Shown: piece by piece, positions 42,032-58,939 of the stretch
How the letters are laid out: every line of letters starts with the position of its first letter
Position numbering within the stretch: the first letter of the stretch is position 1
NCBI RefSeq assembly: GCF_025465255.1
Contig: NZ_JAODNI010000113.1
Span: 15 to 64,014, forward strand
Length of the DNA: 64,000 nt
Direction of reading: 5' to 3'
Source of the DNA: Pseudonocardia sp.
Lineage (GTDB): Bacteria; Actinomycetota; Actinomycetes; Mycobacteriales; Pseudonocardiaceae
Notes under the pieces: generated by a model
Seen by the model: only the letters and a program-made list of their open reading frames with translations
What the model was told of the DNA's origin: nothing
The model's database searches: none
Translations under genes and position numbers: made by a program

Positions 42032-43882
42032 GTGTGCGGGATCGTGGGATACGTCGGCGCACAGGACGCCGCACCGATCCTCCTGGAGGGTCTCGGGAGG
42101 CTGGAGTACCGCGGGTACGACTCGGCGGGCATCGCCGTGGTGCACCGCACGGGCAAGGGCCCGGCGACGCTGAAGGTGCGCAAGGCCAGCGGCCGGGTCG
42201 CGGACCTCGCCGCCGATCTGCCCGCCCGGTTCAAGGGCGCGCCCGGCATCGGGCACACCCGCTGGGCCACCCACGGTGAGCCGAGCGTGGCCAACGCGCA
42301 CCCGCACACGGACACGTCCGAGCGGATCGCGGTGGTCCACAACGGGATCATCGAGAACGCGGACGAGCTGCGGGCCAAGCTGACCGCGGACGGTGTCGAG
42401 TTCACCTCGCAGACGGACACCGAGACCGTCGCGCACCTGGTCGCGGCCGCGTACGTGAACGGCGCCGCGGACCTCGAGCAGGCCGTCCGGACCGCGCTGA
42501 AGCAGGTCGTGGGCGCGTACGGGATCGCCGTGCTGGACTCCGAGCACCCGGACCGGATCGTCGTCGCGCGCAACGGGTCCCCGGTGCTGCTCGGCGTCGG
42601 GGAGCGGGAGATGTTCGTGGCGAGCGACGTCTCCGCGCTCGTCGGCTACACCCGTCAGGTCGTCTACCTCGACGACGGCGAGCTGGCCACGATCACCGCC
42701 ACCGGCTACCGCACCTTCACCCTCGACGACCGCTCGACCGCCAAGCAGCCGTCCGAGGTGGACTGGGACGTCGTCGGCGCCGAGATCGGGGACCACGCCC
42801 ACTACCTGGTCAAGGAGATCGCCGAGCAGCCGCGCTCGATCGAGCGGGCGCTGCGCGGCCGCCTCGACGAGCGGTTCTCCACCGCGCACCTCGGCGGGCT
42901 GAACCTCACGATCCGCGAGGCCCGCGAGTTCAAGCGCGTCAAGATCCTCGGCTGTGGCTCGGCCTGCTACGCGGGCGAACTCGGGGCCCAGCTGATCGAG
43001 GACCTGGCCCGAGTGCCCGCGACGTCGGAGTCCGCGTCGGAGTTCCGCTACCGCAACCCGGTCGTCGAGCCGGACACGCTCTACGTCGCGGTCAGCCAGT
43101 CCGGCGAGACCGTGGACACCCTCGCCGCGGTGCAGGAGCTGCAGCGCAAGGGCGGCCGGGTCATCGGGATCATCAACGTGGTCGGCTCGACGATCGCGCG
43201 GCAGGTCGACGGCGGCATCTACATCCACGCCGGCCCCGAGATGTCCGTGGCCGCGACGAAGTCCTTCACCTCGACCCTCATCGCGTTCGCGCTCCTCGCG
43301 CTGCACCTCGGCCGGGTCCGGGACCTCGCGCCCACGGAGGGCCGCCGGATCATCGACGGCCTCAACCAGCTCCCGGCCCAGATCGAGCAGATCCTGGACG
43401 AGGAGAAGCGGACGGGGCTCATCGCCGAGACCGCGGCCGAGATCGCCCAGCGCCCCAGCGTGCTGTTCATCGGGCGCCGGCGAGGCTGGCCGGTGGCCAA
43501 GGAGGGCGCGCAGAAGTTCAAGGAGGTCTCTTACGTGCACGCCGAGGCCTACGCGTCCGCCGAGCTGAAGCACGGCCCGCTCGCGCTGGTCAGCCCCGAG
43601 CTGCCGACCGTCGCCTGCGTCCCGGACGACGATCTCTTCGAGAAGAACGTCTCTACGCTCGCCGAGATCCGGGCGCGCAAGGGCCCGGTCGTCGCGCTCG
43701 CCCACCGGGAGCTCTCGACGGACCTCGCGGACCGCACGATCGTCGTCCCGCGGAACGAGCCGGAGCTGGACCCGATCCTGATGTCGGTCCCGCTGCAGCT
43801 CCTGGCCTACCACGCGGCCGTGGCCCTGGACCGGGACGTCGACCGCCCGAGGAACCTGGCGAAGTCGGTCACCGTCGAGTAA
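42032..43882 (+). CDS. glmS: glutamine--fructose-6-phosphate aminotransferase
   Basis: The 616-aa product starts (M)CGIVGYVG with the N-terminal nucleophile Cys. It has SIS domains and ends ...KSVTVE. Confidence 0.97.
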   Translation: MCGIVGYVGAQDAAPILLEGLGRLEYRGYDSAGIAVVHRTGKGPATLKVRKASGRVADLAADLPARFKGAPGIGHTRWATHGEPSVANAHPHTDTSERIAVVHNGIIENADELRAKLTADGVEFTSQTDTETVAHLVAAAYVNGAADLEQAVRTALKQVVGAYGIAVLDSEHPDRIVVARNGSPVLLGVGEREMFVASDVSALVGYTRQVVYLDDGELATITATGYRTFTLDDRSTAKQPSEVDWDVVGAEIGDHAHYLVKEIAEQPRSIERALRGRLDERFSTAHLGGLNLTIREAREFKRVKILGCGSACYAGELGAQLIEDLARVPATSESASEFRYRNPVVEPDTLYVAVSQSGETVDTLAAVQELQRKGGRVIGIINVVGSTIARQVDGGIYIHAGPEMSVAATKSFTSTLIAFALLALHLGRVRDLAPTEGRRIIDGLNQLPAQIEQILDEEKRTGLIAETAAEIAQRPSVLFIGRRRGWPVAKEGAQKFKEVSYVHAEAYASAELKHGPLALVSPELPTVACVPDDDLFEKNVSTLAEIRARKGPVVALAHRELSTDLADRTIVVPRNEPELDPILMSVPLQLLAYHAAVALDRDVDRPRNLAKSVTVE

Positions 43883-43957: not shown

Positions 43958-44518
43958 TCAGGTGCGCGTTGGGGCTCCTTGGCGGGGGCCGGTCAGCCAC
44001 TCGGTCATGGGGCTGGTCAGCGGCGTCGTCATGGGCACGTGCGGGTGGCCGACGTAGGTCTCCACCGGGCCTGCCGTCCGCCAGCCGAGCCGGTGGAAGA
44101 AGCGCTCGTTGGGCAGCTGGACGTGGGCGAGCATGCGGATCCCGTCCCGGGCCCCCGCCGTCTCCACCGCGAACCGCACGAGCGGGCCGCCGATCCCCGC
44201 GGTCCGGAACTCCGGGAGCACCGCGAGCCGGTCGCCGAGCCATTCCCCGGACACCCCCGTCGGGTAGAGGCGGACGGTGCCGGCGGGGCGGCCGTCGTGC
44301 GTCGCGAGGACGTGGACGACGTCGTCCCGGGCGTCGTGCGCGTCGACGTCCGAGCCGTCGAACACGGCCTGCTCCTCGACGAACACCGCGCGGCGGATGC
44401 GGTGGTGCCAGGCCCGGGCGTCGGGGTCCGCGGCGGGCCGGCAGGCGACCGGATCCACCCCGACCACCACGTTCGACGCCCGGACGGGCCGGATCCGCTC
44501 CGCCGGTGCGGCGGTCAC
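43958..44518 (-). CDS. GNAT acetyltransferase, MSMEG_0567/Sll0786-like (Nit1C-cluster type)
   Basis: GTG 44518 gives 186 aa, including AVFVEEQAVFDGSDVDAHD...GTVRLYP...WLGDRLAVLPEFR..GIGGPLVRFAV. It lies directly downstream of the radical SAM gene. The family call is from memory of TIGRFAM descriptions. Confidence 0.6.
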   Translation of the reverse strand: MTAAPAERIRPVRASNVVVGVDPVACRPAADPDARAWHHRIRRAVFVEEQAVFDGSDVDAHDARDDVVHVLATHDGRPAGTVRLYPTGVSGEWLGDRLAVLPEFRTAGIGGPLVRFAVETAGARDGIRMLAHVQLPNERFFHRLGWRTAGPVETYVGHPHVPMTTPLTSPMTEWLTGPRQGAPTRT

Positions 44519-44609
44519 CGAGCCCCTCCTGACCTGCACGAACGGCACTTTCGTGCGCCAGGTCGGCACGAGAGTGCCGTTCGTGCGGTGCGGAGTGTGC
44601 GGGGCGCGG

Positions 44610-45797
44610 TCATGCGCTCGGGCGCTTTCCGATCTGCAGGAGCGGGGCGGCGCCGGGCGCGCCGGTGCCGCAGGGCGTGCCGCGGCGCTGATCTCCCTGG
44701 CTGGACTGCTGCACGAGGTTGAGCGACGAGCACGCCTGGCACCGCGCGCAGCCCGCGACCGCGGTGTCCGCGCCCAGCCCGCGCGCGGCGAGGAACCCGG
44801 CGACCTTGCGGTAGATCGGCTCCGTGTACTCCCGCGACGGCGCCGGCACGTCCTCCATCAGCGACCCCGCGACGGGCCGCAGCGGGACGACGAACGGGTA
44901 CACGCCGATGTCGACGGCGCGCCGGCACATCTCCACGGTCAGATCCGGGTCCTCGCCCATCCCGAGGATCACGTATGTCGAGACGCGGCCCTCGCCGAAG
45001 AGCTGCACCGCCCGCTCCCACGTGCGGAAGTAGGCGTCGATCCCGGTCCGGAACTTGCCCGGCGCGACCCGCGCGAGCACCGCCGGGTCGAAGGACTCGA
45101 CGTGCACGCCGACGGAGTCGACGCCCATGTCGTGCACCTGGTCGAGCACCGAGAGGTCCCGCGGCGGCTCGAACTGCACCTCGACGGGTAGCCCCGCGGC
45201 CTCCTTCACGGCCTGCCCGCAGCGCGCGACGTACAACGCGCCGCGGTCCGGGGCCACCGACGAACCGGTGGTCAGCGTGGCGTCGACGGCGCCGTCGAGG
45301 TCCCGGGCGGCGACGGCCACCTCGGCGAGCATCTCGGGCGTCTTCTTCGCGATCGTGTTCCCGGCGGCCAGCGAGACGCCGATGCCGCAGAAGCCGCACT
45401 GGTCCGAGTTGCCCCAGTAGTTGCAGGCCTGCACGACCGTCGACGCCAGCGAGTCCAGGTGCAGCAGCGCGATCTGGTGGTACGGGACGCCGTCGGCGGT
45501 CTCGAGGTCGTAGAACCGGGGCCGTCGCGTCCCCGCCACCGAGGCGACCTTCACGCCGTCCCGGAAGATCCCCTGGCCGTCGTCCTCGGCGCGCAGGGAG
45601 TACGGCGAGGTCTCGCTCGGTGGGACCGTGACGGGCACGCCCTCGATCCAGAGCATCCCCGAGTCCGAGGGACCCGCGCCGCCCGTGCGGGAGGTCTCCA
45701 GGGTGGTCTCGATCCGCAGGCCGACGCTCTGCAGATCCATGATCAGCTCGGCCACGTGGGCCGAGGTGCCGGCAGGAGTCCGGTCGAGCACGGTCAT
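44610..45797 (-). CDS. radical SAM protein, MSMEG_0568-like
   Basis: ATG 45797 (MTVLDRTP) is preceded by GAGGGGA; an alternative GTG lies at 45815. The Cys cluster is CNYWGNSDQCGFC at 45387-45425, with a C-terminal CARCQAC. The body is TIM-barrel-like. Confidence 0.7.
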   Translation of the reverse strand: MTVLDRTPAGTSAHVAELIMDLQSVGLRIETTLETSRTGGAGPSDSGMLWIEGVPVTVPPSETSPYSLRAEDDGQGIFRDGVKVASVAGTRRPRFYDLETADGVPYHQIALLHLDSLASTVVQACNYWGNSDQCGFCGIGVSLAAGNTIAKKTPEMLAEVAVAARDLDGAVDATLTTGSSVAPDRGALYVARCGQAVKEAAGLPVEVQFEPPRDLSVLDQVHDMGVDSVGVHVESFDPAVLARVAPGKFRTGIDAYFRTWERAVQLFGEGRVSTYVILGMGEDPDLTVEMCRRAVDIGVYPFVVPLRPVAGSLMEDVPAPSREYTEPIYRKVAGFLAARGLGADTAVAGCARCQACSSLNLVQQSSQGDQRRGTPCGTGAPGAAPLLQIGKRPSA

Positions 45798-45838
45798 CCG
45801 ATGATCCCCTCGCACGTACTCGGATAGGAGGCGTCCGT

Positions 45839-45850
45839 CTCCTATAGGAG
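45839..45850. promoter_or_regulatory. perfect 12-bp palindrome CTCCTATAGGAG in the divergent rSAM/GT promoter region
   Basis: Read directly from the sequence. An extra ATAGGAG half-site lies at 45824-45830 and CCGATAG at 45855-45861. This is an AT-rich island within a 72-90 bp divergent intergenic region. Confidence 0.45.
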
Positions 45851-45887
45851 ATGTCCGATAGTCAACTATGGTGGACGAGGATGCAAC

Positions 45888-47075
45888 ATGGTGAACGGAG
45901 CGGATGTGTCACAACCCGGCCCGCGAGTGGCCCTGATCAGCCATTCGACGACGCCCCGCGGCGGCCACGTGCATACGATCGGGCTGGCCGAGGCCCTGCA
46001 CCGGGCCGGTGACCGCGTCTACCTCGTCGCACTGGGGGACCCCGCGAAGGGCCTCTACCGCTCCGTCGACGTGCCGCACACGGTCGTCCGCGGGCCCGCG
46101 CGGGCGGGCACGACGCTCACCGAACGGACCCTCGCCGGGATCGAGCTGCTCGCCGCCGGCCTCGCCGAGCGGATCGGGGAGTTCGACGTCCTGCACGCCC
46201 AGGACTGCATCGCCGCGCGCGCCGCGCTGGCTGCCCGCGCCCGCACCGGCGCGCCGGTCCCGGTACTGCGCACCGCCCACCACGTGGACGACTTCACCAC
46301 CCCGGTCCTGGTCGACTGCCAGCGCCGCGCCGTCACCGAGCCGGACCGTGTCCTGGTGGTGAGCGAACAGTGGCGGCGGATCCTCGCCACGGACTTCGGG
46401 GTGTCGACGACGATCGTGCCCAACGGCGTGGACACCGGCCGCTTCCCACCGGCCACCCCGGAGGCGACGCACGCGCTACGGGAGCGCGTCGGCGCGCGGG
46501 AGCGGTTCCTGCTGCTCGCGGTGGGCGGGATCGAGCCCCGCAAGGGGACGGTCCACGCGTTCCGGGCGCTCGCGCGGCTCCGCTCCGAGGGCCTCGACCC
46601 GGTGCTCGCGATCGTCGGCGGGCACTCGTTCCAGGACTTCGCGCCGTACCGGGACGCCGCGCTCGTCGAGCTCCCGGGCCTGGGGCTCCAGCTCGGCCGG
46701 GACGTCGTCGAGCTCGGCACGGTCTCCGACGCCGAGCTGGGCTGCTGGTACGAGGCCGCGGACGCACTCTGCTACCCGTCGACGGCGGAGGGCTTCGGCC
46801 TGGTCGCGATCGAGGCGATGGGGCTCGGGCTGCCGGTCGTCGCCAGCGACCTGCCCGTGTTCCGCGAGCACCTCATCGACGACGTCGACGCGCTGCTCCC
46901 GGCCGTCGGGGACGACCACGCGCTCGCCGCGGCGCTCCGCCGGATCGTCACCGACGCGGAGCTCCGCGCGCGGCTGGCGACGTCCGGACGCCTGAGCGCG
47001 GGCCGCTTCACCTGGGAGAACTCGGCGGACGTCCACCGCGGCATCTACCGGGAGCTCGTCCCGGCACCGGCCTGA
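45888..47075 (+). CDS. GT4-family glycosyltransferase, MSMEG_0565-like
   Basis: The 395-aa product has VALISHSTTPRGGHVHTIGLAEAL at the N-terminus and a C-terminal GT-B E-x7-E region (YPSTAEGFGLVAIEAMGLGLPVV). Confidence 0.75.
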   Translation: MVNGADVSQPGPRVALISHSTTPRGGHVHTIGLAEALHRAGDRVYLVALGDPAKGLYRSVDVPHTVVRGPARAGTTLTERTLAGIELLAAGLAERIGEFDVLHAQDCIAARAALAARARTGAPVPVLRTAHHVDDFTTPVLVDCQRRAVTEPDRVLVVSEQWRRILATDFGVSTTIVPNGVDTGRFPPATPEATHALRERVGARERFLLLAVGGIEPRKGTVHAFRALARLRSEGLDPVLAIVGGHSFQDFAPYRDAALVELPGLGLQLGRDVVELGTVSDAELGCWYEAADALCYPSTAEGFGLVAIEAMGLGLPVVASDLPVFREHLIDDVDALLPAVGDDHALAAALRRIVTDAELRARLATSGRLSAGRFTWENSADVHRGIYRELVPAPA

Positions 47076-47076
47076 C

Positions 47077-48618
47077 CTACTCGGCGAGCAGCCGCGCGAC
47101 CCGGGACTCCGCGACCGACCGTCTCGGGTCCCCGGCGGGCAGCAGGTCCGCCAGCCGCTCGTGCACCTCGAGGTCGTCCCGGCCGAGCGGGTGGGCGCCG
47201 AAGGTGTGCAGCAGGTCCACGTCGTCCGAGTCCAGGACGGCCCGGCGCAGGGCGGCCTCCAGCTCGTCCCGGACGGCGCGGATCTCGGGGGCGTCGGAGC
47301 GCGGGAGCAGCGGCCCGGCGCAGACCCGGATCGCGTCCGCCACCCGGCCGCTCTCCAGCGCGCGCCGGACGGCGCCGAAGTCCGTGTCGACCGTCGCGTC
47401 CAGCCGGTAGGGGCGGGTCTTGAGGACGTCCGCGCCGATCGAGGCGCGCAGCCGGTGGATCTCCCCGCGCACCGTCGTCTGGTTGCCGTCGTCGCCGTAG
47501 AGCAGGTAGGCGAGGCGTTCGGCGGTGAGGCCCTCCGGGTGCAGGGCCAGCGCCGCGAGCATCTCCGCGGGACGCAACGTCATCGGGATGGGGGTGCCGT
47601 CCAGCACCGCGCGCGGGGTCCCGTCGCCCATGAACCGCAGGGCGAGGGCGTGCCGGTCGGGCGCCGGCGCCTCGGGCACGGCGGTCGCCCGGCTCGAGCC
47701 GCGCGGCAGGGCGGATCTCCGCGAGATCTCCCGCAGCAGGTAGCCCTCGGCCAGCGGCTCGACCAGCAGCCGGCGGCCGTCGGCGAGCTCGATGCGGTCC
47801 GCGCCGTCGACGATCGGGACGCGCTCGGGCCACCAGCCGTACGGCTCGCCGGCGACGACCCGGCCGCTGGGCGTGACCAGCGCGCCCGCGGTCCCGCGCA
47901 GGCTCTGCAGGTGCGGCATGTTCCGCAGCCGCATCCGCTCGTCGGCGATCGCGAGCTGCACCCGGAGCTGGTTCTCGGCGAGCTGGGCGGTGGTGGTGAC
48001 CAGCGCGAGCATCGCCGGGTGGATGGTCCGCCGGGGGCCGGTGATGTCGATGGCGCCGATGATCCGGCCGGTGTCCGGGTCGTGCACCGGGGCGGCGACG
48101 CAGGTCCAGGCGTGGATCGTGCGGACGAGGTGCTCGGTGGAATGGATCTGGACGGGGCGGCCCACCGCGAGCGTGGTGCCCATCGCGTTCGTGCCCATCG
48201 CGTCCTCGGACCAGCGCGACCCCTCGACGAGGCCGACCCGGTCCGCCGGGCGCAGCACCGCACTGGCGCCCTCGCGCCACAGGACGACGCCGTCCGCGTC
48301 CGTGACCAGGACTACGTGCATGGCCTCGTCCGCGATGCTCACCAGGTTGCTGCGCAGCAGCGGCATCACGGTGTGCAGCGGGTGGGCGGAGAGGCGGGCC
48401 CTGCTCTCGCGACGGTCGTAGGTGATCGGCGGCGTACGGCGTTCGGGATCGATGTCCGCGGCGAGGCTGCGCTGCCAGGACTCCGAGACCAGGCTGCGGA
48501 GCGGCGTGCCGCCGGAGCGGTCGTCCACGACGGCGGCGTACAGCTCGTCGAGCATGCGGGCCCGGCCGGGATCCCCGGCGGGACCGGTGTCCCGCTCGAC
48601 CACGCCGTCGACTGGCAT
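47077..48618 (-). CDS. GAF-domain transcriptional regulator with C-terminal winged-helix/SARP-like DNA-binding region
   Basis: ATG 48618 gives 513 aa with a GAF-like core (VVLWREGASAVLRPADRVGLVEGSRWSEDAMGTNAMGT...VHDPDTGRIIGAIDITG). The C-terminus reads LRPAEMLAALALHPEGLTAERLAYLLYGDD...VRGEIHRLR. Confidence 0.65.
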   Translation of the reverse strand: MPVDGVVERDTGPAGDPGRARMLDELYAAVVDDRSGGTPLRSLVSESWQRSLAADIDPERRTPPITYDRRESRARLSAHPLHTVMPLLRSNLVSIADEAMHVVLVTDADGVVLWREGASAVLRPADRVGLVEGSRWSEDAMGTNAMGTTLAVGRPVQIHSTEHLVRTIHAWTCVAAPVHDPDTGRIIGAIDITGPRRTIHPAMLALVTTTAQLAENQLRVQLAIADERMRLRNMPHLQSLRGTAGALVTPSGRVVAGEPYGWWPERVPIVDGADRIELADGRRLLVEPLAEGYLLREISRRSALPRGSSRATAVPEAPAPDRHALALRFMGDGTPRAVLDGTPIPMTLRPAEMLAALALHPEGLTAERLAYLLYGDDGNQTTVRGEIHRLRASIGADVLKTRPYRLDATVDTDFGAVRRALESGRVADAIRVCAGPLLPRSDAPEIRAVRDELEAALRRAVLDSDDVDLLHTFGAHPLGRDDLEVHERLADLLPAGDPRRSVAESRVARLLAE

Positions 48619-48848
48619 CCGCACCCCGTATGTCGCTGTTCCGGTGTAGTCCCGGACCGTCCTCGTTCCCGTCGCGCGCACCACCGCGGCGGAGACTCCG
48701 CCGCAGGCCCGCGCTGCCCCGCGCGACCCTCGCCCGCGGCCATCATCGGCCACCCCCACCCGGATAGGCAAGGCGACGAACGCCTGGCCGATAGGTCAGG
48801 TCCAGCCGGCGGCGGGCGTGCAACGAACGGGCAACGTGACACAACTTA

Positions 48849-48865
48849 CCGTGCGGTGCGCACGG
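48849..48865. promoter_or_regulatory. inverted repeat CCGTGCG-gtg-CGCACGG nested between GTGAC/GTCAC, upstream of the response regulator
   Basis: The 7-bp arms are perfect and lie 27-43 nt upstream of ATG 48892. GTGACACA and GTCACACA flank them. Confidence 0.35.
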
Positions 48866-48891
48866 TCCCCGTCACACATCGGAGGTACGCG

Positions 48892-49659
48892 ATGACGGTG
48901 TTGTCCTCGGACACCCTGCCGGACGCCGCTCCCGCCCGGCCGGCCCGGCCGCACTTCGCCCCGCCCGTCACCGCTCGCGTACCCGAGGGCGACCTCGCCC
49001 TGCGGACGGCCAGGGTGCTCGTCGTGGAGAGCGAGGCGATCGTCCGGCTAGGGCTGCGCCAGCTCTTCGCCGCCGAGCCCGACCTGCGGATCGTCGCCGA
49101 GGCGGCCACCCCGCGGGACGCCCTCTTCGCCGCGGACCGCGTCCGCCCGGACCTCGTGCTGCTCGACGTGGACCTCGGCCGCGGGGACGCCGCCGGCCTG
49201 GACGTCGCCCGCGCGCTGCTGCAACGCCACCGCGGCACCAAGATCCTCGTGCTCACCGCCTGCCGGGACCGCGACGTCATGCTCCGCACCATCCGCCTAG
49301 GGGTCCACGGCTACCTGCGCAAGGGCGCGGAGACGGCCGAGATCGTGCAGGCGGCCCGGACGCTGCTCCGCGGCGAGAGCGTCTTCGACTCGCGCACCAC
49401 CGCGATCGTGATGGACGCGCTGCGGGACACCGAGCGCCCGGCTCCCGGTGTGACCGGACCCCGCGGCGCCCTGCTGACGGACCGGGAGACCCAGGTCCTG
49501 CGCCTGCTCGCCACCGGGATGTCCAACCGCGAGATCGGCGCCGAGCTCGTCATCAGCGAGGCGACCGTCAAGTTCCACGTCCGGAACCTGCGGGACAAGC
49601 TCGACGTCCGCCGCCGCACGGAGATCGTCTACACCGCGACCCGGCAGGGGATCGTCTGA
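48892..49659 (+). CDS. NarL/LuxR-family response regulator (orphan, atypical acidic pocket)
   Basis: ATG 48892 follows GGAGG. The receiver has VLVVESE in place of the usual DD pair but keeps LLDVDL, T (LVLTA) and K (YLRKG). The C-terminal LuxR HTH reads LTDRETQVLRLLATGMSNREIGAELVISEATVKFH. Confidence 0.8.
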   Translation: MTVLSSDTLPDAAPARPARPHFAPPVTARVPEGDLALRTARVLVVESEAIVRLGLRQLFAAEPDLRIVAEAATPRDALFAADRVRPDLVLLDVDLGRGDAAGLDVARALLQRHRGTKILVLTACRDRDVMLRTIRLGVHGYLRKGAETAEIVQAARTLLRGESVFDSRTTAIVMDALRDTERPAPGVTGPRGALLTDRETQVLRLLATGMSNREIGAELVISEATVKFHVRNLRDKLDVRRRTEIVYTATRQGIV

Positions 49660-49669
49660 CCGTCGGCGC

Positions 49670-50071
49670 TCAGCCGAGCGCCGACACCGCCGCCGTCGCG
49701 ACCGTCGTGTCCTGGTCGACGGACCCGGCGCTGACCCCGACCGCGCCGACCAGCTCGCCGTCGCGGTGCACCGGGAGGCCCCCGCCGAACGCGACCATGC
49801 CGCCGGAGAGCTGCTCCAGGCCGTAGAGCTCCTGCCCCGGCTGGACCAGCGGCGCGAGCGCGCCGGTGGGCAGGTTCATCAGGATCGACGTCCGCGCCTT
49901 GCGCTGCGCGATGTCGATGCTGGCGCGGATGGCGCCGTCCTGGCGGGCGAACGCCAGGAGGTGCCCGCCCGCGTCGACCACCGCGATGTTCATCGGCTGG
50001 CCGATCTCGTCGGCCTTCTCCAGTCCCGCGGCGAGCGCCTTCTGTGCCTCCGCGAACGTCAGCCCGTTCAT
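49670..50071 (-). CDS. GlcG/HbpS-like (DUF336, PduO-C-terminal-like) heme/corrinoid-associated protein
   Basis: ATG 50071 gives 133 aa: MNGLTFAEAQKALAAGLEKADEIGQPMNIAVVDAGGHLLAFARQDGA...AQRKARTS...GGLPV..DGELVGAVGVSG-like. Confidence 0.8.
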   Translation of the reverse strand: MNGLTFAEAQKALAAGLEKADEIGQPMNIAVVDAGGHLLAFARQDGAIRASIDIAQRKARTSILMNLPTGALAPLVQPGQELYGLEQLSGGMVAFGGGLPVHRDGELVGAVGVSAGSVDQDTTVATAAVSALG

Positions 50072-50477
50072 CGTCGTGTCCTTCCCTCGTCGTCGAGCGG
50101 GTCCGGCGACCCGAGCTCCCACCCAACAGGACGGGGGCCCCGCGCGGCAGCCTTCTCCTCGGGCGAGTGGATCCGCCCCTGACCGGACGGTGGGGTGGCG
50201 TCGGTGGCGAGCGGGGCCCCCCATCCGGACGTCCGATCAGGGGCGCACCCGGCGGCCGGAGCAACCGCCACCGCCGCGCGGGCGACAAGGCCCCCGCAAC
50301 TGGCGGCGTCACCGTTCGGCGGCGCCGCGGACCGGGCGCGTGTCCGGCGGCCGTTCGGGTAGGGCGGGCCCGGAGGGGTTCTCGCTGCCTGCGTCCGTGC
50401 GCAACGATCGTGCGACGTGGCCGGCGTCACTGTCGAGGAGTCGTGGCCCTTCTGCGTACCGTGAACGACGAGAGGTG

Positions 50478-50930
50478 ATGCGCGTGTCCGCTCCAGCCCC
50501 GCAGTCCCGCCCCGATCTCGGGCCGGCCGACTATCCGCTCTCGGTCAATCGTCAGGACCTCCTCCGCACCCCCACCGGGAAGCCGCTCTCGGCGCTGACG
50601 ATGAACGCCGTGGTGGCGGGGGAGATCGTCGCGGACGACCTGCGGATCGCGCCGGAGACGCTGCAGCTGCAGGCGATTCTGGCCGAGTCGGTGCAGCGCC
50701 CGCAGCTCGCCGCGAACTTCCGCCGCGCCGCCGAGCTCACGGCGGTCCCCGACGCCGAGGTCCTCGCGATGTACAACGCGCTGCGGCCCCGGGCGTCGAG
50801 CAGGGACGAGCTGCTGACGATCGCCGAGAACCTGGAGAGCAAGTACCACGCCCCCGTCTGCGGCGCGCTGGTCCGCGAGGCCGCCGAGGTCTACCAGCGG
50901 CGCGACCTGCTGGCCCGCGAGGAGGACTGA
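50478..50930 (+). CDS. pduE: B12-dependent diol/glycerol dehydratase small (gamma) subunit
   Basis: ATG 50478 follows GAGAGG. DYPLSVNRQDLLRTPTGKPL...RIAPETLQLQA...AANFRRAAELTAVPDAEVLAMYNALRP...LVREAAEVY aligns closely with my recollection of Salmonella PduE. Confidence 0.88.
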   Translation: MRVSAPAPQSRPDLGPADYPLSVNRQDLLRTPTGKPLSALTMNAVVAGEIVADDLRIAPETLQLQAILAESVQRPQLAANFRRAAELTAVPDAEVLAMYNALRPRASSRDELLTIAENLESKYHAPVCGALVREAAEVYQRRDLLAREED

Positions 50931-50931
50931 C

Positions 50932-52626
50932 ATGACCACCACCCAACCCCGGCACTCGCGGCGCACCGAGATCCTGGAGGACCGGCCCGTCAACCTCGAC
51001 GGCTTCGTCGAGGAGTGGCCCGAGAAGGGCCTCGTCGCCATGGAGTCGGACTTCGACCCGGCGCCGAGCGTGCGGGTCGAGGACGGCCGGATCGTCGAGC
51101 TCGACGGCCGCGCCCGCGCCGACTTCGACTTCATGGACACCTTCATCGCCGACCACGCGATCGACGTCGAGACGACGGAGGCCTCGATGGCGGTCCCGTC
51201 GGACGAGATCGCCCGCATGCTGATCAACCCGACCGTCTCCCGCCAGGATGTGCTCGCCGTGACCCGCGGGCTCACCCCGGCCAAGATCCTCGACGTCGTC
51301 AAGCTGATGAACGTCGTCGAGATCATGCAGGGCATGCAGAAGATGCGGGCCCGCCGCACGCCCGCGAACCAGGGGCACTCCACCAGCGCCCGGGACAACC
51401 CCCTCCAGGTCGCCGTGGACGCCGCGGAGGGCGCGCTGCGCGGGTTCGCCGAGCTCGAGACGACGCTGGGCGTCCTGCGCTACGCCCCGCTGGTGGCGAT
51501 CGCGCTGCAGGTCGGTGCGCAGGTCGGGCGCGGCGGCGTGCTCACCCAGTGCGCGCTGGAGGAGGCCACCGAGTTGGAGCTCGGCATGCGCGGCATCACC
51601 GCCTACGCCGAGACGATCTCGATCTACGGCACCGAGTCGGTGTTCGTCGACGGCGACGACACGCCGTGGTCCAAGTCCTTCCTCGCCTCCGCCTACGCCT
51701 CGCGCGGCATCAAGATGCGCTTCACCTCGGGCACCGGTTCGGAGGTGCAGATGGGCAACGCCGAGGGCAAGTCCATGCTGTACCTGGAGATCCGCTGCGT
51801 CCTCATGGCCAAGGGCGCGGGGGTGCAGGGCCTGCAGAACGGTTCGATCAGCTGCATCGGCGTACCCGGTGCGATGCCGGGCGGCATCCGTGCGGTAGCG
51901 GCGGAGAACCTCGTCGCGAGCATGGTCGACCTCGAGTGCGCATCCGGCAACGACCAGTCGTTCTCGCACTCGGCGATGCGCCGGACCGCGCGGATGATGC
52001 CCCAACTGCTGCCGGGCACCGACTTCGTCTGCTCGGGCTACTCCGGGGTGCCCAACGCCGACAACATGTTCGCCGGATCCAACTTCGACACCGACGACTA
52101 CGACGACTGGAACACCATCCAGCGCGACCTGCAGGTCGACGGCGGGCTGCGACACATCCGGGAGGACGAGATCCTGCAGGTCCGCAACAAGGCCGCCCGC
52201 GCGCTGCAGGCCCTGTTCGCCGAGCTCGACCTGCCGCGGATCACCGACGAGGAGGTCGAGGCGGCCACCTATGCGAACGGCAGCGAGGACTACCCCGAGC
52301 GCGACGTGCTCGAGGACCTCAAGGGCGCCCAGTCGGTGATGGACCGCGGCATCACCGGCCTCGACCTGGTCACGGCGCTGGAGCGCACCGGATTCCACGA
52401 CGTCGCCGAGAACCTGCTGACCGTGCTGCGCCAGCGCGTCTCCGGCGACCTGCTGCAGACCTCGGCCATCCTCACCCACGACTTCGTCCCGCTCTCGGCG
52501 ATCAACGACGCCAACGACTACGCCGGGCCGGGCACCGGCTACCGGCTGCAGGGCGAGCGGTGGGAACAGCTCAAGAAACTGCGGCACGTGACGAGCGCCG
52601 AGAACCCCGAGACGGAGGTGTCGTGA
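50932..52626 (+). CDS. pduC: B12-dependent diol/glycerol dehydratase large (alpha) subunit
   Basis: The 564-aa product starts ...EILEDRPVNLDGFVEEWPEKGLVAMES, as in PduC/DhaB1. Its ATG lies 1 nt after the gamma stop. Confidence 0.93.
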   Translation: MTTTQPRHSRRTEILEDRPVNLDGFVEEWPEKGLVAMESDFDPAPSVRVEDGRIVELDGRARADFDFMDTFIADHAIDVETTEASMAVPSDEIARMLINPTVSRQDVLAVTRGLTPAKILDVVKLMNVVEIMQGMQKMRARRTPANQGHSTSARDNPLQVAVDAAEGALRGFAELETTLGVLRYAPLVAIALQVGAQVGRGGVLTQCALEEATELELGMRGITAYAETISIYGTESVFVDGDDTPWSKSFLASAYASRGIKMRFTSGTGSEVQMGNAEGKSMLYLEIRCVLMAKGAGVQGLQNGSISCIGVPGAMPGGIRAVAAENLVASMVDLECASGNDQSFSHSAMRRTARMMPQLLPGTDFVCSGYSGVPNADNMFAGSNFDTDDYDDWNTIQRDLQVDGGLRHIREDEILQVRNKAARALQALFAELDLPRITDEEVEAATYANGSEDYPERDVLEDLKGAQSVMDRGITGLDLVTALERTGFHDVAENLLTVLRQRVSGDLLQTSAILTHDFVPLSAINDANDYAGPGTGYRLQGERWEQLKKLRHVTSAENPETEVS

Positions 52627-53201
52627 TGAGCGCTCCCGCCGCGGTGCGGACCCTGACCCTGAAGGAGATCGGGCCGGCCCAGCGTGCGTCGCGGCCGGAC
52701 GAGGTGGTCATCGCCGTCTCGCCGGCCTTCGCCGAGACGTTCACCAGGACCATCGTCGACGTCCCGCACGCCGAGGTGATCCGGCAGGTCCTGGCCGGCA
52801 TCGAGGAGCAGGGCGTCACCGCGCGGATGGTCAAGGTGTGGGACACCGCCGACCTCGCGGCCATCGCCCACACCGGTGCCCGGCTCTCGGGCTCCGGCAT
52901 CTCCATCGGGCTGCTCTCCCGCGGGACCACGATGATCCACCAGCGGGACCTGCCGCGGCTGAGCAACCTGGAGCTGTTCCCGCAGTCCCCGCTGCTCGAC
53001 GCCGAGGTGTTCCGCCGCATCGGGTCGAACGCCGCCCAGTACGCCAAGGGCGAGTCGCCGGCCCCGGTGCCGACCCGGAATGACCAGATGGCGCGCCCCC
53101 GCTGGCAGGCGAAGGCCGCGCTGCTGCACCTCAAGGAGTTCGAGTGCATCGTGGCGGGGCGCAGGCCGGTGGAGGTCGAGCCGGTGATCTCCCGGGCATG
53201 A
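52626..53201 (+). CDS. pduD: B12-dependent diol/glycerol dehydratase medium (beta) subunit
   Basis: ATG 52626 overlaps the alpha stop (ATGA). The 191-aa product has DEVVIAVSPAF, RLSGSGISIGLLSRGTTMIHQRDLPRLSNLELFPQSPLL and NDQMARPRWQAKAALLHLKE. It lacks the long N-terminal extension of enteric PduD. Confidence 0.9.
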   Translation: MSAPAAVRTLTLKEIGPAQRASRPDEVVIAVSPAFAETFTRTIVDVPHAEVIRQVLAGIEEQGVTARMVKVWDTADLAAIAHTGARLSGSGISIGLLSRGTTMIHQRDLPRLSNLELFPQSPLLDAEVFRRIGSNAAQYAKGESPAPVPTRNDQMARPRWQAKAALLHLKEFECIVAGRRPVEVEPVISRA

Positions 53202-55024
53202 ACCGTCTGGTCGTCGGGGTCGACATCGGGAACTCGACCACCGAGGCGTGCGTCGCCTCGGTCTCGGGCGGTTCCGTGGAGTACCTGGGAACGGCCCTGA
53301 CCCACACGACCGGGGTCAAGGGCACGCCCGAGAACACCGAGGGCGCCGTCGACGCCGTGCGCCGGGCCCTCGTGGGGGCCCGGCGCTCGCCGGCGGACCT
53401 CGACGTCGTTCTGCTGAACGAGGCCACGCCGGTGATCAGCGGGCTGGCCATGGAGACCATCTCCGAGACGATCATCACCGAGTCCACGATGATCGGGCAC
53501 AACCCCGAGACACCGGGCGGCGTCGGGCTGGGGGTCGGCACGACCGTCTCGCTCGACGGGCTCGCCGGGGCCTCGCCGGACGAGCCGGTGGTCGTGGTGG
53601 TCCCGGGCGGCTGGGACTTCGACGACGTGGCCGCCGAGCTGAACGCGGCGGCCGAGCGCGGCGTACCGGTCGTCGCGGCCGTCCTCGCCCACGACGACGC
53701 CGTGCTGGTGGTGAACCGGCTCCGCACGCCGATCCCCGTCGTCGACGAGGTGGCGGCGGTGGCGAAGGTGCCCCTCGGGATGCACGCCGCCGTCGAGGTC
53801 GCGCCCCCGGGGCGCACCATCCGCACGCTGTCGGACTCCTACGGCCTCGCGTCGGTGTTCGGGCTCGATCCGGAACAGACGCGGCAGGTCTCGCCGGTGG
53901 CCCGGGCGCTCACCGGGAACCGCTCGGCCGTCGTCGTCCGGACGCCCACCGGGGACGTCACCGACCGGCGGATCCCGGTCGGCACCCTGACCCTCACCGG
54001 CGCCGGCAAGACCCTGCAGGTCGACGTCGACGCGGGCGCCGACGAGATCATGGACACACTCGACCGGGTCCAGCCCCTCGACGACGCGACCGGTGAGCCC
54101 GGCACACACGTCGGCGGGATGCTCGCGCAGGTCCGGGACACCATGACGGACGTGACCGGGCAGCCGGCGGCCGAGATCCGGATCCGGGACGTGCTGGCCG
54201 TCGACACGTTCGTGCCGAACGAGGTGCGCGGCGGGCTGGCCGGCGAGGTCGCGCTGGAGAACGCCGTCGCGCTCGCGGCGATGGTCCGGACCAGCCGGAG
54301 CCGCATGCAGGTCGTCGCCGACGAGGTGGCCGAGGCGCTCGGCTGCCGCGCCGAGATTGGCGGCATCGAGGGCGAGATGGCGGTCCGGGGGGCGTTGACC
54401 ACGCCGGGCACCGACGTCCCGATCGCGGTGCTCGACCTCGGCGGCGGATCCACGGACGCGGCCCTGCTCGACCGCGACGGCGTGTGCACGGCGGTACACG
54501 TCGCCGGGGCCGGCGAGCTGGTCACGAAGCTGATCGGCTCCGAGCTGGCCCTCGAGGACCGGGAGGTCGCCGAGTCGGTCAAGCGGCATCCGCTGGCGAA
54601 GGTCGAGAGCTTCTTCCACATCCGACACGAGGACGGGACGGTGCAGTTCTTCACCGAGCCGCTGCCGCCGCACGTGTTCGCCCGCGTCGTCGCGATGACC
54701 CCGGAGGGGCCCGCACCGATCCCGACGAGGGCCTCGGTCGACCACGTCCGGCGGATCCGTAGGGAGGCGAAGCGGCGGGTGTTCGTCGTCAACGCGCTCC
54801 GCGCGCTGCGCCAGGTCGCGCCCCGCGGCAGCCTGCGGATGCTGGACTTCGTGGTCCTGCTCGGTGGTTCCGCGCTGGACTTCGAGATCCCGGACCTGAT
54901 CGCCGACGCCCTCGCCGGGCACGGTGTCGTCTGCGGCACGGGCAACGTGCACGGCAACGAGGGCCCGCGCAACGCCGTCGCCGCGGGGCTGGTCGACGCG
55001 CACGCCGACGCGGTGTCCGGGTGA
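53198..55024 (+). CDS. pduG: diol dehydratase reactivase large (ATPase) subunit
   Basis: ATG 53198 overlaps the beta stop. The 608-aa product starts MNRLVVGVDIGNSTTE and has LDLGGGSTDAA, the actin/Hsp70-like ATPase fold of DdrA/PduG. Confidence 0.88.
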   Translation: MNRLVVGVDIGNSTTEACVASVSGGSVEYLGTALTHTTGVKGTPENTEGAVDAVRRALVGARRSPADLDVVLLNEATPVISGLAMETISETIITESTMIGHNPETPGGVGLGVGTTVSLDGLAGASPDEPVVVVVPGGWDFDDVAAELNAAAERGVPVVAAVLAHDDAVLVVNRLRTPIPVVDEVAAVAKVPLGMHAAVEVAPPGRTIRTLSDSYGLASVFGLDPEQTRQVSPVARALTGNRSAVVVRTPTGDVTDRRIPVGTLTLTGAGKTLQVDVDAGADEIMDTLDRVQPLDDATGEPGTHVGGMLAQVRDTMTDVTGQPAAEIRIRDVLAVDTFVPNEVRGGLAGEVALENAVALAAMVRTSRSRMQVVADEVAEALGCRAEIGGIEGEMAVRGALTTPGTDVPIAVLDLGGGSTDAALLDRDGVCTAVHVAGAGELVTKLIGSELALEDREVAESVKRHPLAKVESFFHIRHEDGTVQFFTEPLPPHVFARVVAMTPEGPAPIPTRASVDHVRRIRREAKRRVFVVNALRALRQVAPRGSLRMLDFVVLLGGSALDFEIPDLIADALAGHGVVCGTGNVHGNEGPRNAVAAGLVDAHADAVSG

Positions 55025-55368
55025 GCGGAGGGGGCGCCGAGCGACCCGCGGTCGTCGTGCTGCTGGCCGCGGGCGCCGATCCGGCGATCCTGCACGAGGT
55101 GAGTGCCGGCGCGGAGGAGGAAGGTGTGCCGACCCGCGTGGATCCCGTCCAGGAGGGAGACGCCGTCGCGCTCGCGCACACGGCCGCCGGACTGTCCACG
55201 CTGCGGACCGGCATCGGGATCGGCGGAGACGGCGCCGTCGCGGTCCATCACGACACGCTGCCCGCGGACGCGCCCGTCGGGCTCGCCGGGCCGGACGCCG
55301 CCGCCGCGGACCAGCGGACCATCGGGCACCTCGCGGCCCGGATCGTCAAGGTGCTCCCGCTGGCGTGA
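55021..55368 (+). CDS. pduH: diol dehydratase reactivase small subunit
   Basis: GTG 55021 overlaps the upstream stop (GTGA). The product is 115 aa. Its position and size match DdrB/PduH, and it has a beta-subunit-like fold pattern (PAVVVLLAAG...EEEGVP). Confidence 0.7.
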   Translation: MSGGGAERPAVVVLLAAGADPAILHEVSAGAEEEGVPTRVDPVQEGDAVALAHTAAGLSTLRTGIGIGGDGAVAVHHDTLPADAPVGLAGPDAAAADQRTIGHLAARIVKVLPLA

Positions 55369-55381
55369 GCCGGGTCGGTCA

Positions 55382-55408
55382 GCCCCGGAAACGCTGCGGC
55401 TCCGGGGC
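55382..55408 (+). terminator. stem-loop after the dehydratase/reactivase operon
   Basis: GCCCCGGA (55382-55389) pairs with TCCGGGGC (55401-55408). It lies 14 nt after the pduH stop and has no clear U-tract. Confidence 0.45.
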
Positions 55409-55590
55409 CGGGAGGCGACCGCGCGGCACAGCTCGTCGTGGTGCACGGCGGACGCCGACGGCGGCCGGGACGGCTGGTGGCGCCGCTGATCGGGCATCGG
55501 CTCTCCTGGTCGGCTCCGGGTGTGTTCACGATAGGTGAGAGCCGTTTATGATGCTCAACGCGTACGTGTCCATGACCGGAGGGGACGAGT

Positions 55591-56184
55591 GTGACCCAGC
55601 CGAGCCAGGGCCCCTGGGAGCCCATCGTCGACGCCATCGGGCCGAGGGTCCGGGAGGCGCGTCAGCGACTTGGCCTGTCCCTGCAACAGCTCGCGGTCCG
55701 GGCCGACGTGTCCGCCGCCGCCGTGCACAAGGTCGAACGGGGGGACATGGTGCCCACGATCACCACGCTGCTGAAGCTCTCCGGCGCGCTCGGCACCACC
55801 GTCGCGTCGCTGGTCGACGAGCTGCCCGGCGAGCCCGTCGCCCGGTACGTCCGGGCGGGCGCGCGCGGCAAGGCGCCCAAGGAGTGGGCCCCGGCGGCGC
55901 TCGGCGTGACCACGGAGGGGATCGCCGAGGCGGACGCGACGTTGCGCGCGGGCGGCGTGATGGCCGTCGTCGAACCGGGCGGGGAGAGCGGGGACACCCG
56001 GCCCCGCCGACCGGGAGAGGAGCTCCTGCTGGTGTTGGAGGGTGCGTTGCGGGTCGAGGTGGCGGGGGAGCGGTACGACGTCGAGCCGGGGGACACCCTG
56101 CACTATCCGACGGACCGCGGGCACCGGTGGAGCAACGAGGGCGACGAGCCCGCGCGCGCGGTGTGGGTGACGATCCGTGCCTGA
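55591..56184 (+). CDS. XRE-family HTH regulator with C-terminal cupin domain
   Basis: GTG 55591 gives 197 aa. The HTH reads RVREARQRLGLSLQQLAVRADVSAAAVHKVERG and the cupin region ELLLVLEGALRVEVAGERYDVEPGDTLHYP...H.W.N. Confidence 0.85.
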   Translation: MTQPSQGPWEPIVDAIGPRVREARQRLGLSLQQLAVRADVSAAAVHKVERGDMVPTITTLLKLSGALGTTVASLVDELPGEPVARYVRAGARGKAPKEWAPAALGVTTEGIAEADATLRAGGVMAVVEPGGESGDTRPRRPGEELLLVLEGALRVEVAGERYDVEPGDTLHYPTDRGHRWSNEGDEPARAVWVTIRA

Positions 56185-57145
56185 GCTTTCCGGGCCCGAC
56201 TCCCTGTCTGCCATCGCCGCCGCCTGCCTCGCGAACCCGGGACTGACCGCGAAGGCCGAGATCGCCCTCGTCGGCGAGGTCCTCGGCGGGACGGACTGGA
56301 TGGGGGGTCCCGGGGACGACGGCGCGGTGGTCACCGCGCACGGCGGCCCGGTCATCGCGTGCGGGGAGGCGCTGTTCCCCCCGTTCGTCGCCGCGGACCC
56401 GCACGGTGCCGGGTTCGCCGCGGTGCTCACGAACGTCAACGACGTGGCCGCGATGGGTGGGGTGCCGCTGGGCGTCGTGGACACCGTCGTCGCGTCGGAA
56501 CCGGTGGCCCGTAAGGCACTCGCCGGGATGCGGGAGGCCGCCGAGCTCTACGACGTGCCGATCATCGGCGGGCACCTGACGATCCATGACGGCGATCCCG
56601 CGATCTCCGCGTTCGCCGTCGGGGCCTCCGCGGCGCCGTTGTCGGTGACCCGCGCCGCGCCCGGCCAGTCGCTCGTCGTGGCCGCGGCGCTCGACGGCCG
56701 GATGCGGGCGGACTTCCCGTTCTTCCCGGCGTTCGAGTCCCGGGGCCGGCGAAGCGCGGGCGACGTCCGGCTGCTCGGCGTGCTGGCGGAATCCGGCGTC
56801 GTGGTGGCGGCGAAGGACATCAGCATGGCCGGGCTCGTCGGATCGCTGGCGATGCTCCTGGAGCCCGGACGGCTCGGCGTGACCCTCGACGTCGACGCGG
56901 TGCCGGCTCCGCCGGGTGTGCCCCTGACACGGTGGTTCAACTGCTTCCCGAGCTTCGGCTTCCTGCTCTGCGTGCCCGCGGGCCGGGAGCCGGAGTGCCT
57001 CGCCGCGTTCGCCGAGCGGGACCTGGCGGCGGCGGTCGTCGGGACCCTGGACGACACGGGCACCCTGGCCCTCTCCCGCCCGGACGAGCACGTGGAGGTC
57101 CTGAGCCTGCACGACTTCCGCGTCACCGGCCTCCCGCGCGCCTGA
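56177..57145 (+). CDS. AIR-synthase-related (PurM/ThiL/HypE-superfamily) protein, possibly sll0787/MSMEG_0566-like
   Basis: The 322-aa product overlaps the XRE gene by 8 nt. It has the PurM-like N-domain motif GPGDDGAVV and NVNDVAAMGG, plus a C-domain (AAKDISMAGLVGSLAMLLE). The subfamily call is an inference from context. Confidence 0.65.
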   Translation: MPELSGPDSLSAIAAACLANPGLTAKAEIALVGEVLGGTDWMGGPGDDGAVVTAHGGPVIACGEALFPPFVAADPHGAGFAAVLTNVNDVAAMGGVPLGVVDTVVASEPVARKALAGMREAAELYDVPIIGGHLTIHDGDPAISAFAVGASAAPLSVTRAAPGQSLVVAAALDGRMRADFPFFPAFESRGRRSAGDVRLLGVLAESGVVVAAKDISMAGLVGSLAMLLEPGRLGVTLDVDAVPAPPGVPLTRWFNCFPSFGFLLCVPAGREPECLAAFAERDLAAAVVGTLDDTGTLALSRPDEHVEVLSLHDFRVTGLPRA

Positions 57146-58885: not shown

Positions 58886-58939
58886 GCAGCAGGTCCTCTC
58901 CATCGATGCAGAAGAACCTCCGATGTTAGTCCCGTCACA

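Follow-up and report, generated by a model that had tools for sequence, protein, structure and literature searches.

In a window of 64,000 nucleotides (the whole stretch of DNA analysed) from Pseudonocardia sp., contig NZ_JAODNI010000113.1 of assembly GCF_025465255.1, genes related to the Nit1C cluster lie in two units with 8.5 kb between them (45888 and 55591). One comprises a radical SAM enzyme (rSAM) and a GNAT N-acyltransferase in an operon, with a divergent GT4 glycosyltransferase (GT), and the other is an operon of an XRE-HTH and cupin regulator (XRE-cupin) and an enzyme of the AIR-synthase superfamily (AIRS-like). These units probably constitute one co-regulated set of a soil Pseudonocardia, a reduced and lineage-specific derivative of a Nit1C-like cluster of the Pseudonocardiaceae that was later split by the insertion of a pdu-type diol dehydratase block. 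It is thus a reduced form of a cluster type already described, and its genes are not gathered in one tight operon-like cluster.

The Nit1C cluster comprises nitBCDEFGH in Pseudomonas, sll0783-sll0787 in Synechocystis and MSMEG_0565-0572 in M. smegmatis (Podar et al. 2005, PMC1199592), and has been connected with cyanide assimilation in Pseudomonas and, in Synechocystis and M. smegmatis, with nitrogen starvation (PMC1199592, PMC7815647). Its function has been open since 2005 and is still called obscure in the literature searched (PMC1199592, PMC7815647), where 'the physiological role remains unclear' (PMC7815647) and where no solution of the chemistry was found.

Three of the four enzymes belong to curated families of this cluster. 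The rSAM reaches 381.5 bits with TIGR04043 (cutoff 303.7), the GNAT 93 bits with TIGR04045 (cutoff 68.45) and the GT 331.7 bits with TIGR04047 (cutoff 259.85), which bears out their assignment to the MSMEG_0568, MSMEG_0567 and MSMEG_0565 families in the preliminary description of this DNA. The GNAT also matches Pfam Acetyltransf_1/7/10 and, weakly, FeeM, while the next-best families of the GT are MshA, EpsE and BshA, all far under their cutoffs. In the rSAM, the cysteines are spaced C125-x8-C134-x2-C137, in place of C-x3-C-x2-C, and the C-terminal part contains C350-x2-C353-x2-C356; all six are invariant in 12 relatives, and the C-terminal ones could hold a second cluster. A sequence search found no relative of the rSAM in the PDB. 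Its structure model is poor (pLDDT of 60.5, shallow alignment), and Foldseek retrieved with it generic rSAM barrels alone (NifB, LipA, RlmN, BioB, ThiH and viperin, TM scores of 0.35-0.43). Ratios of nonsynonymous to synonymous substitution (dN/dS), determined pairwise by NG86 against five to seven relatives, are 0.09-0.19 for the rSAM, 0.15-0.45 for the GNAT, 0.15-0.43 for the GT and 0.15-0.30 for the AIRS-like gene; those of the neighbouring glmS and pfk are 0.10-0.25 and about 0.21. The four genes are under purifying selection wherever they are present.

Relatives were collected by a scan with the rSAM alignment in one genome per GTDB species, from which the best 80 of 479 hits were taken with flanks of 10 kb; rSAM copies below about 67% identity would have gone unseen. 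The loci (designated by L numbers) were annotated by tblastn with reference proteins, with spot checks by NCBIfam, and four arrangements were found. In the A-type, to which the window belongs, the order is ABC exporter, GlmS, GNAT, rSAM, GT, MimR/GAF regulator, response regulator (RR), the HbpS-like gene and pdu where present, XRE-cupin, AIRS-like and phosphofructokinase (PFK). This order is complete without pdu in L020, L025 and L028, and is found without pdu and with the GT, or the GT and the GNAT, gone in L022, L023, L027, L030, L038, L043 and L048. The B-type of other Pseudonocardia (L012) has XRE-cupin, AIRS-like, rSAM, AllG-like and the beta and alpha subunits of nitrile hydratase, with GT, FdrA/AllF-like and carbamate-kinase-like genes on the opposite strand; the layout is inverted in L033, L044 and L046. 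The C-type, of Actinomycetospora and other Pseudonocardiaceae, has XRE-cupin, a flavoprotein resembling CoA-disulfide reductase, an MSMEG_0572-family protein, nitrile hydratase, GT, FdrA, carbamate kinase, rSAM and GNAT. In the D-type, the rSAM stands alone beside glmS. The rSAM side adjoins glmS and the fused ABC exporter in all A- and D-type loci. Among the 80 loci, the GT was found in 59, the GNAT in 54, carbamate kinase in 45, XRE-cupin in 42, the hydratase in 38, the MSMEG_0572 family in 27, the AIRS-like gene in 26 and the MimR_N/GAF regulator in 20, the last including all A-type loci, with or without pdu.

The preliminary description spoke of a core of four genes, which in these loci is no fixed one. 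The four genes are not an obligatory unit, because several A-type relatives are cleanly without the GT or without the GT and the GNAT. The GT is absent in L022, L023, L027 and L054, the GT and the GNAT are absent in L030, L038, L043, L048 and L051, and the rSAM alone is kept in L010, L029, L039-L041 and L053, with no remnants of the lost genes. In A-, B- and D-type Pseudonocardia, the rSAM persists with XRE-cupin and AIRS-like wherever this could be checked, which points to rSAM and AIRS-like as the persistent core. The distribution of the GNAT and the AIRS-like gene differs between types: most B-type loci (L012, L036) have the AIRS-like gene and no GNAT in range, and C-type loci (L071-L092) have the GNAT. 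In M. smegmatis, the GNAT and AIRS proteins are described as one fused protein in the definitions of TIGR04045/04050.

The best family of the AIRS-like protein is TIGR04049 with 248.1 bits, followed by TIGR04050 with 155.8 bits (cutoff 312.2) and methanogenesis marker 2 with 153.5 bits. The cutoff of TIGR04049 is 321.3 and, because the score lies under it, formal membership in the family of sll0787, which the gene had been said to resemble, is not obtained; the gene stands as a real companion of the rSAM and probably represents a divergent branch of the sll0787 family with the same role. The translated protein retains the PurM-type motifs GDDGAV, NDVAAMGG and KDISMAGL in full. We think that this gene belongs to the set, because TIGR04049 leads all other families by about 90 bits and a like score (250.9 bits, likewise under the cutoff) is reached by the rSAM-abutting copy of L036, because the window protein is 76% identical to the rSAM-abutting copy of P. 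eucalypti, because in A-type loci without pdu the two regulators alone separate the GT from XRE-cupin and AIRS-like, and because both parts share a DNA motif. XRE-cupin and AIRS-like directly abut the rSAM in the B-type loci L012, L034, L035, L036 and L055. The XRE-cupin gene always precedes the AIRS-like gene in relatives, and the two overlap in the window by 8 nt and are translationally coupled, in agreement with the operon described earlier.

The shared motif is a predicted operator. An element of about 38 nt upstream of XRE-cupin is kept in 14 Pseudonocardia loci. In it, the half-site CGTCCACCATAG/CG is repeated in inverted orientation, and in L028 the element is a perfect 11-bp inverted repeat. 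In the window, the inverted repeat is TGTTCACGATAG-N14-TGATGCTCAACG and overlaps TTCACG-16-TATGAT, a sigma-70-like promoter at 55525-55552. The region between the rSAM and the GT contains two half-sites on the minus strand, CGTCCACCATAG at 45866-45877 and CGTTCACCATGT at 45886-45897, of which the second overlaps the start codon of the GT; the operator core present in both control regions is CACCATAG. A 12-nt position weight matrix, trained solely on the XRE-cupin promoter sites of other genomes and used to scan both strands of the window (about 128,000 positions), ranked the sites at 55523, 45866, 55549 and 45886 as 1, 2, 6 and 7, respectively. Ranks 2 and 7 both fall inside the 90-nt divergent region of rSAM and GT; only seven hits of at least 14.5 bits occur in the whole window, which gives an expectation of 0.012 for a region as short as this divergent one. 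The sequence GTYCACSATAG has exactly two matches in the 64 kb (45866 and 55524), against 0.03 expected, and none of 100 shuffles reached two. The half-site is also kept in the rSAM/GT intergenic region of nine relatives, and half-sites of like sequence were found upstream of the orphan rSAM in L010, L029, L039 and L040, loci of the type of P. dioxanivorans CB1190, and in the divergent region of carbamate kinase and rSAM in the C-type loci L071, L080 and L085. No operator hit was obtained by the matrix scan in the promoter region of pdu. Since the 11-mer occurs only in the XRE-cupin promoter and the rSAM/GT region, the distribution of the motif suggests that both control regions belong to one regulon. 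The XRE-cupin protein is predicted to bind these sites because the motif travels with, and overlaps, the XRE-cupin promoter.

The fuller clusters of the Pseudonocardiaceae give the set its context. In this family, the MSMEG_0568-family rSAM is usually accompanied by a Co-type nitrile hydratase, FdrA/AllF-like and AllG-like proteins and a carbamate kinase, and the same loci add the GT, the GNAT, an MSMEG_0572-family protein and a flavoprotein (L012 8394-18682; L036; L044; L080 3-11607). The alpha subunit of the hydratase carries VCTLCSC, the signature of Co-type nitrile hydratases. In L080, the scores are 222.6 bits with TIGR04044, 343.9 with TIGR04047 and 98.9 with TIGR04045, together with FdrA, carbamate kinase and nitrile hydratase. 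The rSAMs of hydratase-linked loci are 67-87% identical to that of the window. Judged by its gene content, the hydratase-linked locus is a cluster of the Nit1C-like kind in which a hydratase takes the place of the nitrilase, and no description of it was found in the literature searched. The exchange of the nitrilase of classical clusters for a Co-type hydratase, FdrA/AllG-like proteins and carbamate kinase speaks for the handling, downstream of the core, of a nitrile followed by an amide or carbamoyl compound. In P. thermophila DSM 43832 (L044 7055-8292), the cluster-linked hydratase is a second Co-type enzyme; its identification with the crystallised enzyme was rejected, 1IRE giving 238 bits versus 294 for the best PDB chain.

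These partners are absent from the window, as had been noted for the nitrilase, the flavoprotein and the MSMEG_0570 and MSMEG_0572 genes. Pfam gave no Pyr_redox match in any called gene of the window and no CN_hydrolase match in the called genes outside the region scanned first. The nitrilase motif CWE[HN] was used as a screen for a Nit6803-type nitrilase (TIGR04048) and was found in no open reading frame (ORF) of at least 200 aa, be it in the window or in 92 loci. No window match was obtained by tblastn for nitrile hydratase, FdrA/AllF, AllG and carbamate kinase with queries from relatives, for the MSMEG_0569-family flavoprotein (TIGR04046) with that of L080, or, at E<=1e-3, for the MSMEG_0572 family with the L080 member that defines the TIGR04044 score above. 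For the MSMEG_0570 family (TIGR04042, about 100 aa), the search covered called ORFs of 80 aa or more; the sole ORF of about 90 aa near the set, at 41736-42005, matched no NCBIfam model and had no precomputed Pfam match, and no second ORF of such length was called. This ORF (89 aa, plus strand) lies between the ABC exporter and glmS and is called in every copy of the locus. No NCBIfam match was obtained for eight ORFs, from the window and from relatives, that had no assignment. The missing half, described before as the nitrilase half, is more than a nitrilase that was lost, the fuller clusters carrying nitrile hydratase, FdrA/AllG-like proteins and carbamate kinase.

The GAF regulator, the orphan RR, the GlcG-like gene and the pduECDGH-like operon reported between the two units were all found. 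The diol dehydratase subunits follow the order small-large-medium and score 201.2 (small, cutoff 183), 948.8 (large, cutoff 788) and 300.4 (medium, cutoff 248) with NCBIfam, PduG (reactivase alpha) scores 907.8 (cutoff 400), and reactivase beta was assigned from a weak match to the medium-subunit family and from its position. Homology between the window and L020 ends at the stop codon of the RR (49659) and resumes at the XRE-cupin promoter, and this junction measures 97 nt in L020 versus 5.9 kb in the window; in nine relatives, the RR stop codon is followed by the XRE-cupin promoter within about 150 nt. The pdu block is thus an indel, as the earlier proposal of an island that splits the set implied. 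The island consists of the HbpS-like gene and pduECDGH (about 49660-55520); the GAF regulator and the RR, listed before among the intervening genes, do not belong to it, because relatives that lack pdu have them too. No direct or inverted repeats and no remnant of an insertion sequence were found at its borders, and its composition and codon usage look native. In the RR (48892-49659), which has no adjacent kinase, third-position changes dominate in the alignment with relatives.

The history of the block was followed in neighbour-joining trees on p-distances, one of them outgroup-rooted and built from a concatenation of five genes. In this tree, a single clade, recovered in 200 of 200 bootstraps and apart from L025, L028 and L032, contains all pdu-bearing loci, and every A- or D-type locus outside this clade is without pdu. 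The window and L013 are sister (198/200) to a group that holds both the pdu-less L020 and the pdu-bearing P. halophobica group. A single nested clade of pdu-bearing loci, seen in a midpoint-rooted rSAM tree, was rejected by the outgroup-rooted bootstraps (2/200). Values of dS are 0.32-0.34 for pduC and 0.41-0.53 for the flanking genes, a nearness which fits one old gain. One gain of pdu at the base of the clade, with later loss in the lineage of L020, is favoured over the alternative of two separate gains. Other features of the block vary: a channel gene of the MIP (GlpF-like) family lies between the HbpS-like gene and the small subunit in L009 (697-1452), L011 (4193-4948) and L093 (3506-4261) and is absent in the window (50072-50477) and in L013, where about 400 nt are found. 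The junction of the RR and the HbpS-like gene behaves as a variable spot (L018 1-5587; L015; L019; L026; L093 1-2730), where P. kujensis, P. terrae, one P. halophobica strain and P. oroxyli carry extra cargo, made up of DHDPS-like and GntR genes and another two genes; an aldehyde dehydrogenase is part of this cargo in L015, L018 and L019 (P. kujensis, P. terrae and the P. halophobica strain).

From these observations, a history and a working scheme can be proposed. In the lineage of the window, the hydratase and carbamoyl genes are absent and the core stands beside glmS, with the MimR-like GAF regulator and the NarL-type RR between the GT and XRE-cupin; later, the 5.9-kb block would have been inserted between the RR and the XRE-cupin promoter. 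XRE-cupin probably represses both control regions until its cupin domain binds a small molecule. The rSAM would act on a small molecule by radical chemistry. The AIRS-like enzyme might use ATP to activate the oxygen of a carbonyl or amide group, in the manner of PurM, PurL, ThiL and HypE; the GNAT would acylate an amine at nitrogen, and the MshA/BshA-like GT would add a sugar. An amino-sugar donor is suggested because, outside its own family, the GT is nearest to MshA and BshA and because glmS adjoins the set, and glmS may also be simply a conserved neighbour. In the full clusters, the pathway would pass via a nitrile that is then hydrolysed by nitrilase or hydratase; in the window, this hydrolytic step would be absent or encoded elsewhere. 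HypE makes a nitrile from a carboxamide by the ATP activation of the AIRS superfamily and, because of this, a role of the AIRS-like enzyme in the interconversion of amide and nitrile is reasonable by analogy. This analogy can be carried further, to a reading in which rSAM and AIRS-like, with GNAT and GT optional, would be an autonomous pathway under XRE-cupin control for the synthesis or handling of a small molecule with a nitrile group, and the AIRS-like enzyme an ATP-dependent amide-to-nitrile dehydratase with chemistry of the HypE type. We consider this doubtful; if true, it would explain the interchangeable partners of the pair, namely nitrilase in classical Nit1C, Co-type hydratase and carbamoyl enzymes in the Pseudonocardiaceae, and neither in the window.

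Several observations weigh against one co-regulated set of Nit1C descent that was split by pdu. Every enzymatic role is read from superfamily chemistry, the score of the AIRS-like protein is under the cutoff of its family, and the names given by NCBI to its relatives go no further than 'AIR synthase related' or 'methanogenesis marker 2'. In C-type loci, the 10 kb on either side contain no AIRS-like gene, and in P. dioxanivorans CB1190 (D-type) XRE-cupin and AIRS-like lie about 1.1 Mb from the rSAM. The half-sites between rSAM and GT are in direct, not inverted, orientation, and half-site variants that end in ATCG are common in coding DNA of high G+C content. For the insertion, L020 lies inside the pdu clade without pdu, which requires a later loss or a second gain, and no more than 2 of 200 bootstraps of the concatenated tree unite the pdu-bearing loci as a monophyletic group. 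The repeated absence of GT and GNAT in relatives could also mean erosion.

If erosion were the explanation, the genes beside glmS would be a decaying leftover paralogue of a hydratase-type cluster, and the four genes would no longer form a pathway. This would account for the relatives without GT, without GT and GNAT, or with the rSAM only and no traces of the lost genes, and for P. yunnanensis and P. aurantiaca, which hold a second, fuller copy. It is nonetheless unlikely, since the four genes are intact, with dN/dS of 0.09-0.45, comparable to glmS and pfk, the operator sites are kept across species, and neither the PurM-type motifs nor the cysteines of the rSAM have been lost. The same two species bear on the possibility that a complete Nit1C- or hydratase-type cluster is present elsewhere in the genome and that the genes of the window are its accessory paralogues. 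They are the two species among the 80 loci with two rSAM copies (L027 and L047 in P. yunnanensis, L022 and L082 in P. aurantiaca), one in the glmS-side arrangement and the other in a fuller cluster, and the scan of the best 80 hits leaves copies below about 67% identity unseen. Against this stands that P. halophobica, P. kujensis, P. terrae, P. lutea, P. ailaonensis, RS010, NPDC049154 and the metagenome-assembled genome (MAG) L013 each appear once among the hits of at least 67% identity, a range that includes the B- and C-type rSAMs, and we give this possibility a low probability. A search for MSMEG_0572-family homologs in close relatives returned few named hits.

It is also conceivable that XRE-cupin and AIRS-like are an independent module of two genes that lies 9 kb from the rSAM by coincidence, with only rSAM, GNAT and GT belonging together. 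The sub-threshold score of the AIRS-like protein, the C-type clusters that have an XRE-cupin gene and no AIRS-like gene nearby, and the pair in CB1190, which stands alone beside gcvH, a PALP-domain gene and an ApbA-like gene, would be in line with this. What makes it improbable is that the pair abuts the rSAM directly in at least five B-type loci, that the 11-mer is found in both control regions and nowhere else in the 64 kb, that a half-site of like sequence occurs upstream of the unlinked rSAM of CB1190 itself, and that TIGR04049 leads the next family by about 90 bits. One co-regulated set, reduced from a Nit1C-like cluster and later split, is for these reasons the preferred explanation.

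Compared with Nit1C itself, the rSAM, GNAT and GT of the window are in the same curated families and the AIRS-like protein is nearest to sll0787. The window differs in having no nitrilase, no ORF1 (the 160-aa MSMEG_0572/Sll0783 family), no ORF6 of about 100 aa and no flavoprotein; its genes are not in one operon, its AIRS-like protein scores under the family cutoff, and its regulator is XRE-cupin and not the sigma-54 activator NitA, NtcA or GlnR. The hydratase-linked clusters (L012, L036, L044, L080 and others) have orthologous rSAM, GT, GNAT, XRE-cupin and AIRS genes and the same operator half-site in their control regions, whereas their hydratase, FdrA/AllF-like and AllG-like proteins, carbamate kinase, MSMEG_0572 member and flavoprotein are all absent in the window. 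The inserted block resembles pdu/dha operons in its three subunits and large reactivase, all over their cutoffs, the small reactivase-like gene next to them and the GlcG/HbpS-like gene; it differs in the subunit order, in the lack of the MIP channel gene, unlike its relatives, and in being cargo in another gene set with which it does not share the operator. XRE-cupin has the XRE-HTH and cupin architecture of PuuR-type repressors and an inverted-repeat operator over its own promoter, but its 49.8 bits with NF007408, against a cutoff of 211, indicate that it is not PuuR. With PurM, PurL, ThiL, SelD and HypE, the AIRS-like protein shares the AIRS and AIRS_C domains with intact signature motifs, and its nearest solved structures are PurL, ThiL and PurM; it resembles them only weakly (E of 3e-7 at best), and the C-terminal cysteine of HypE is missing.

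The window itself is modest, a reduced variant split by ordinary catabolic cargo, and its main value is comparative. A hydratase in the place of the nitrilase, beside the same rSAM, GNAT, GT and MSMEG_0572 families, is independent genomic support for a nitrile intermediate. Pseudonocardia offers a natural dissection series, from the full cluster to four genes, to rSAM and AIRS-like, and to rSAM alone, and the predicted XRE-cupin regulator with its CGTCCACCATAG half-site could serve in a search for the metabolite that induces the set.

The window has a G+C content of 73%. Genes were called by periodicity of G+C at third codon positions (GC3) and then checked against libraries of hidden Markov models; all genes of note were found, with GC3 of the coding type, at the coordinates collected in Table 1. 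The set is flanked on the rSAM side by the fused ABC exporter and glmS, and on the AIRS side by pfk. For all proteins, the closest relatives with a name are Pseudonocardia species, and the exact rSAM protein also occurs, with identical gene order, on soil-metagenome contigs and in MAG GCA_032230185.1. All sequencing runs that contain this DNA are metagenomes from soil.

Table 1. Coordinates of the set, the inserted block and the synteny anchors in the window.
Feature	Position	Strand	Evidence or remark
GlmS, synteny anchor	42032-43882	+	TIGR01135, 712.8 bits
GNAT N-acyltransferase, MSMEG_0567/Sll0786 family	43958-44569 (alternative start 44518)	-	Downstream of rSAM, same strand; TIGR04045
MSMEG_0568-family radical SAM enzyme (rSAM)	44610-45797	-	TIGR04043
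rSAM/GT divergent control region	45798-45897		Predicted operator half-sites
GT4 glycosyltransferase, MSMEG_0565 family	45888-47075	+	Divergent from rSAM; TIGR04047
MimR_N/GAF/HTH regulator	47077-48618	-	Pfam GAF; precomputed MimR_N, GAF, YTH3_C; 513 aa
NarL/MadR-type response regulator (RR)	48892-49659	+	Pfam Response_reg and GerE; NF047785 MadR, 197 bits, under cutoff
Inserted block (HbpS/GlcG-like and pduECDGH)	about 49660-55520		Homology break versus L020; NCBIfam
HbpS/GlcG-like gene	49670-50071	-	Part of inserted block
Diol dehydratase small, large and medium subunits, reactivase alpha and beta	50478-55368	+	NCBIfam
XRE-cupin promoter/operator (predicted)	55522-55559	+	Inverted repeat over sigma-70-like promoter
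XRE-HTH and cupin regulator (XRE-cupin)	55591-56184	+	Pfam HTH_3 and Cupin_2; PuuR-like architecture
AIR-synthase-superfamily enzyme (AIRS-like)	56177-57145	+	AIRS and AIRS_C; best family TIGR04049
Phosphofructokinase (PFK), anchor on AIRS side	57860-58903	-	TIGR02483, 493.7 bits; synteny

The remainder of the window is ordinary chromosome. Downstream of pfk, a conserved DUF3616 gene is found (window 61577-63761; L009 10917-13846; L093 13877-16729), which in relatives has a VldE-like (PF26571) gene on either side. Other genes of the window encode a PdtaS-like GAF/PAS histidine kinase (2374-3951), a nickel superoxide dismutase (11601-12089), a PAS-GGDEF-EAL protein (13992-16967), a 974-aa ATPase of the FtsK/SpoIIIE family (23846-26770) beside a DUF5134 gene, and a fused E1/E2 2-oxoglutarate dehydrogenase (27444-31364).

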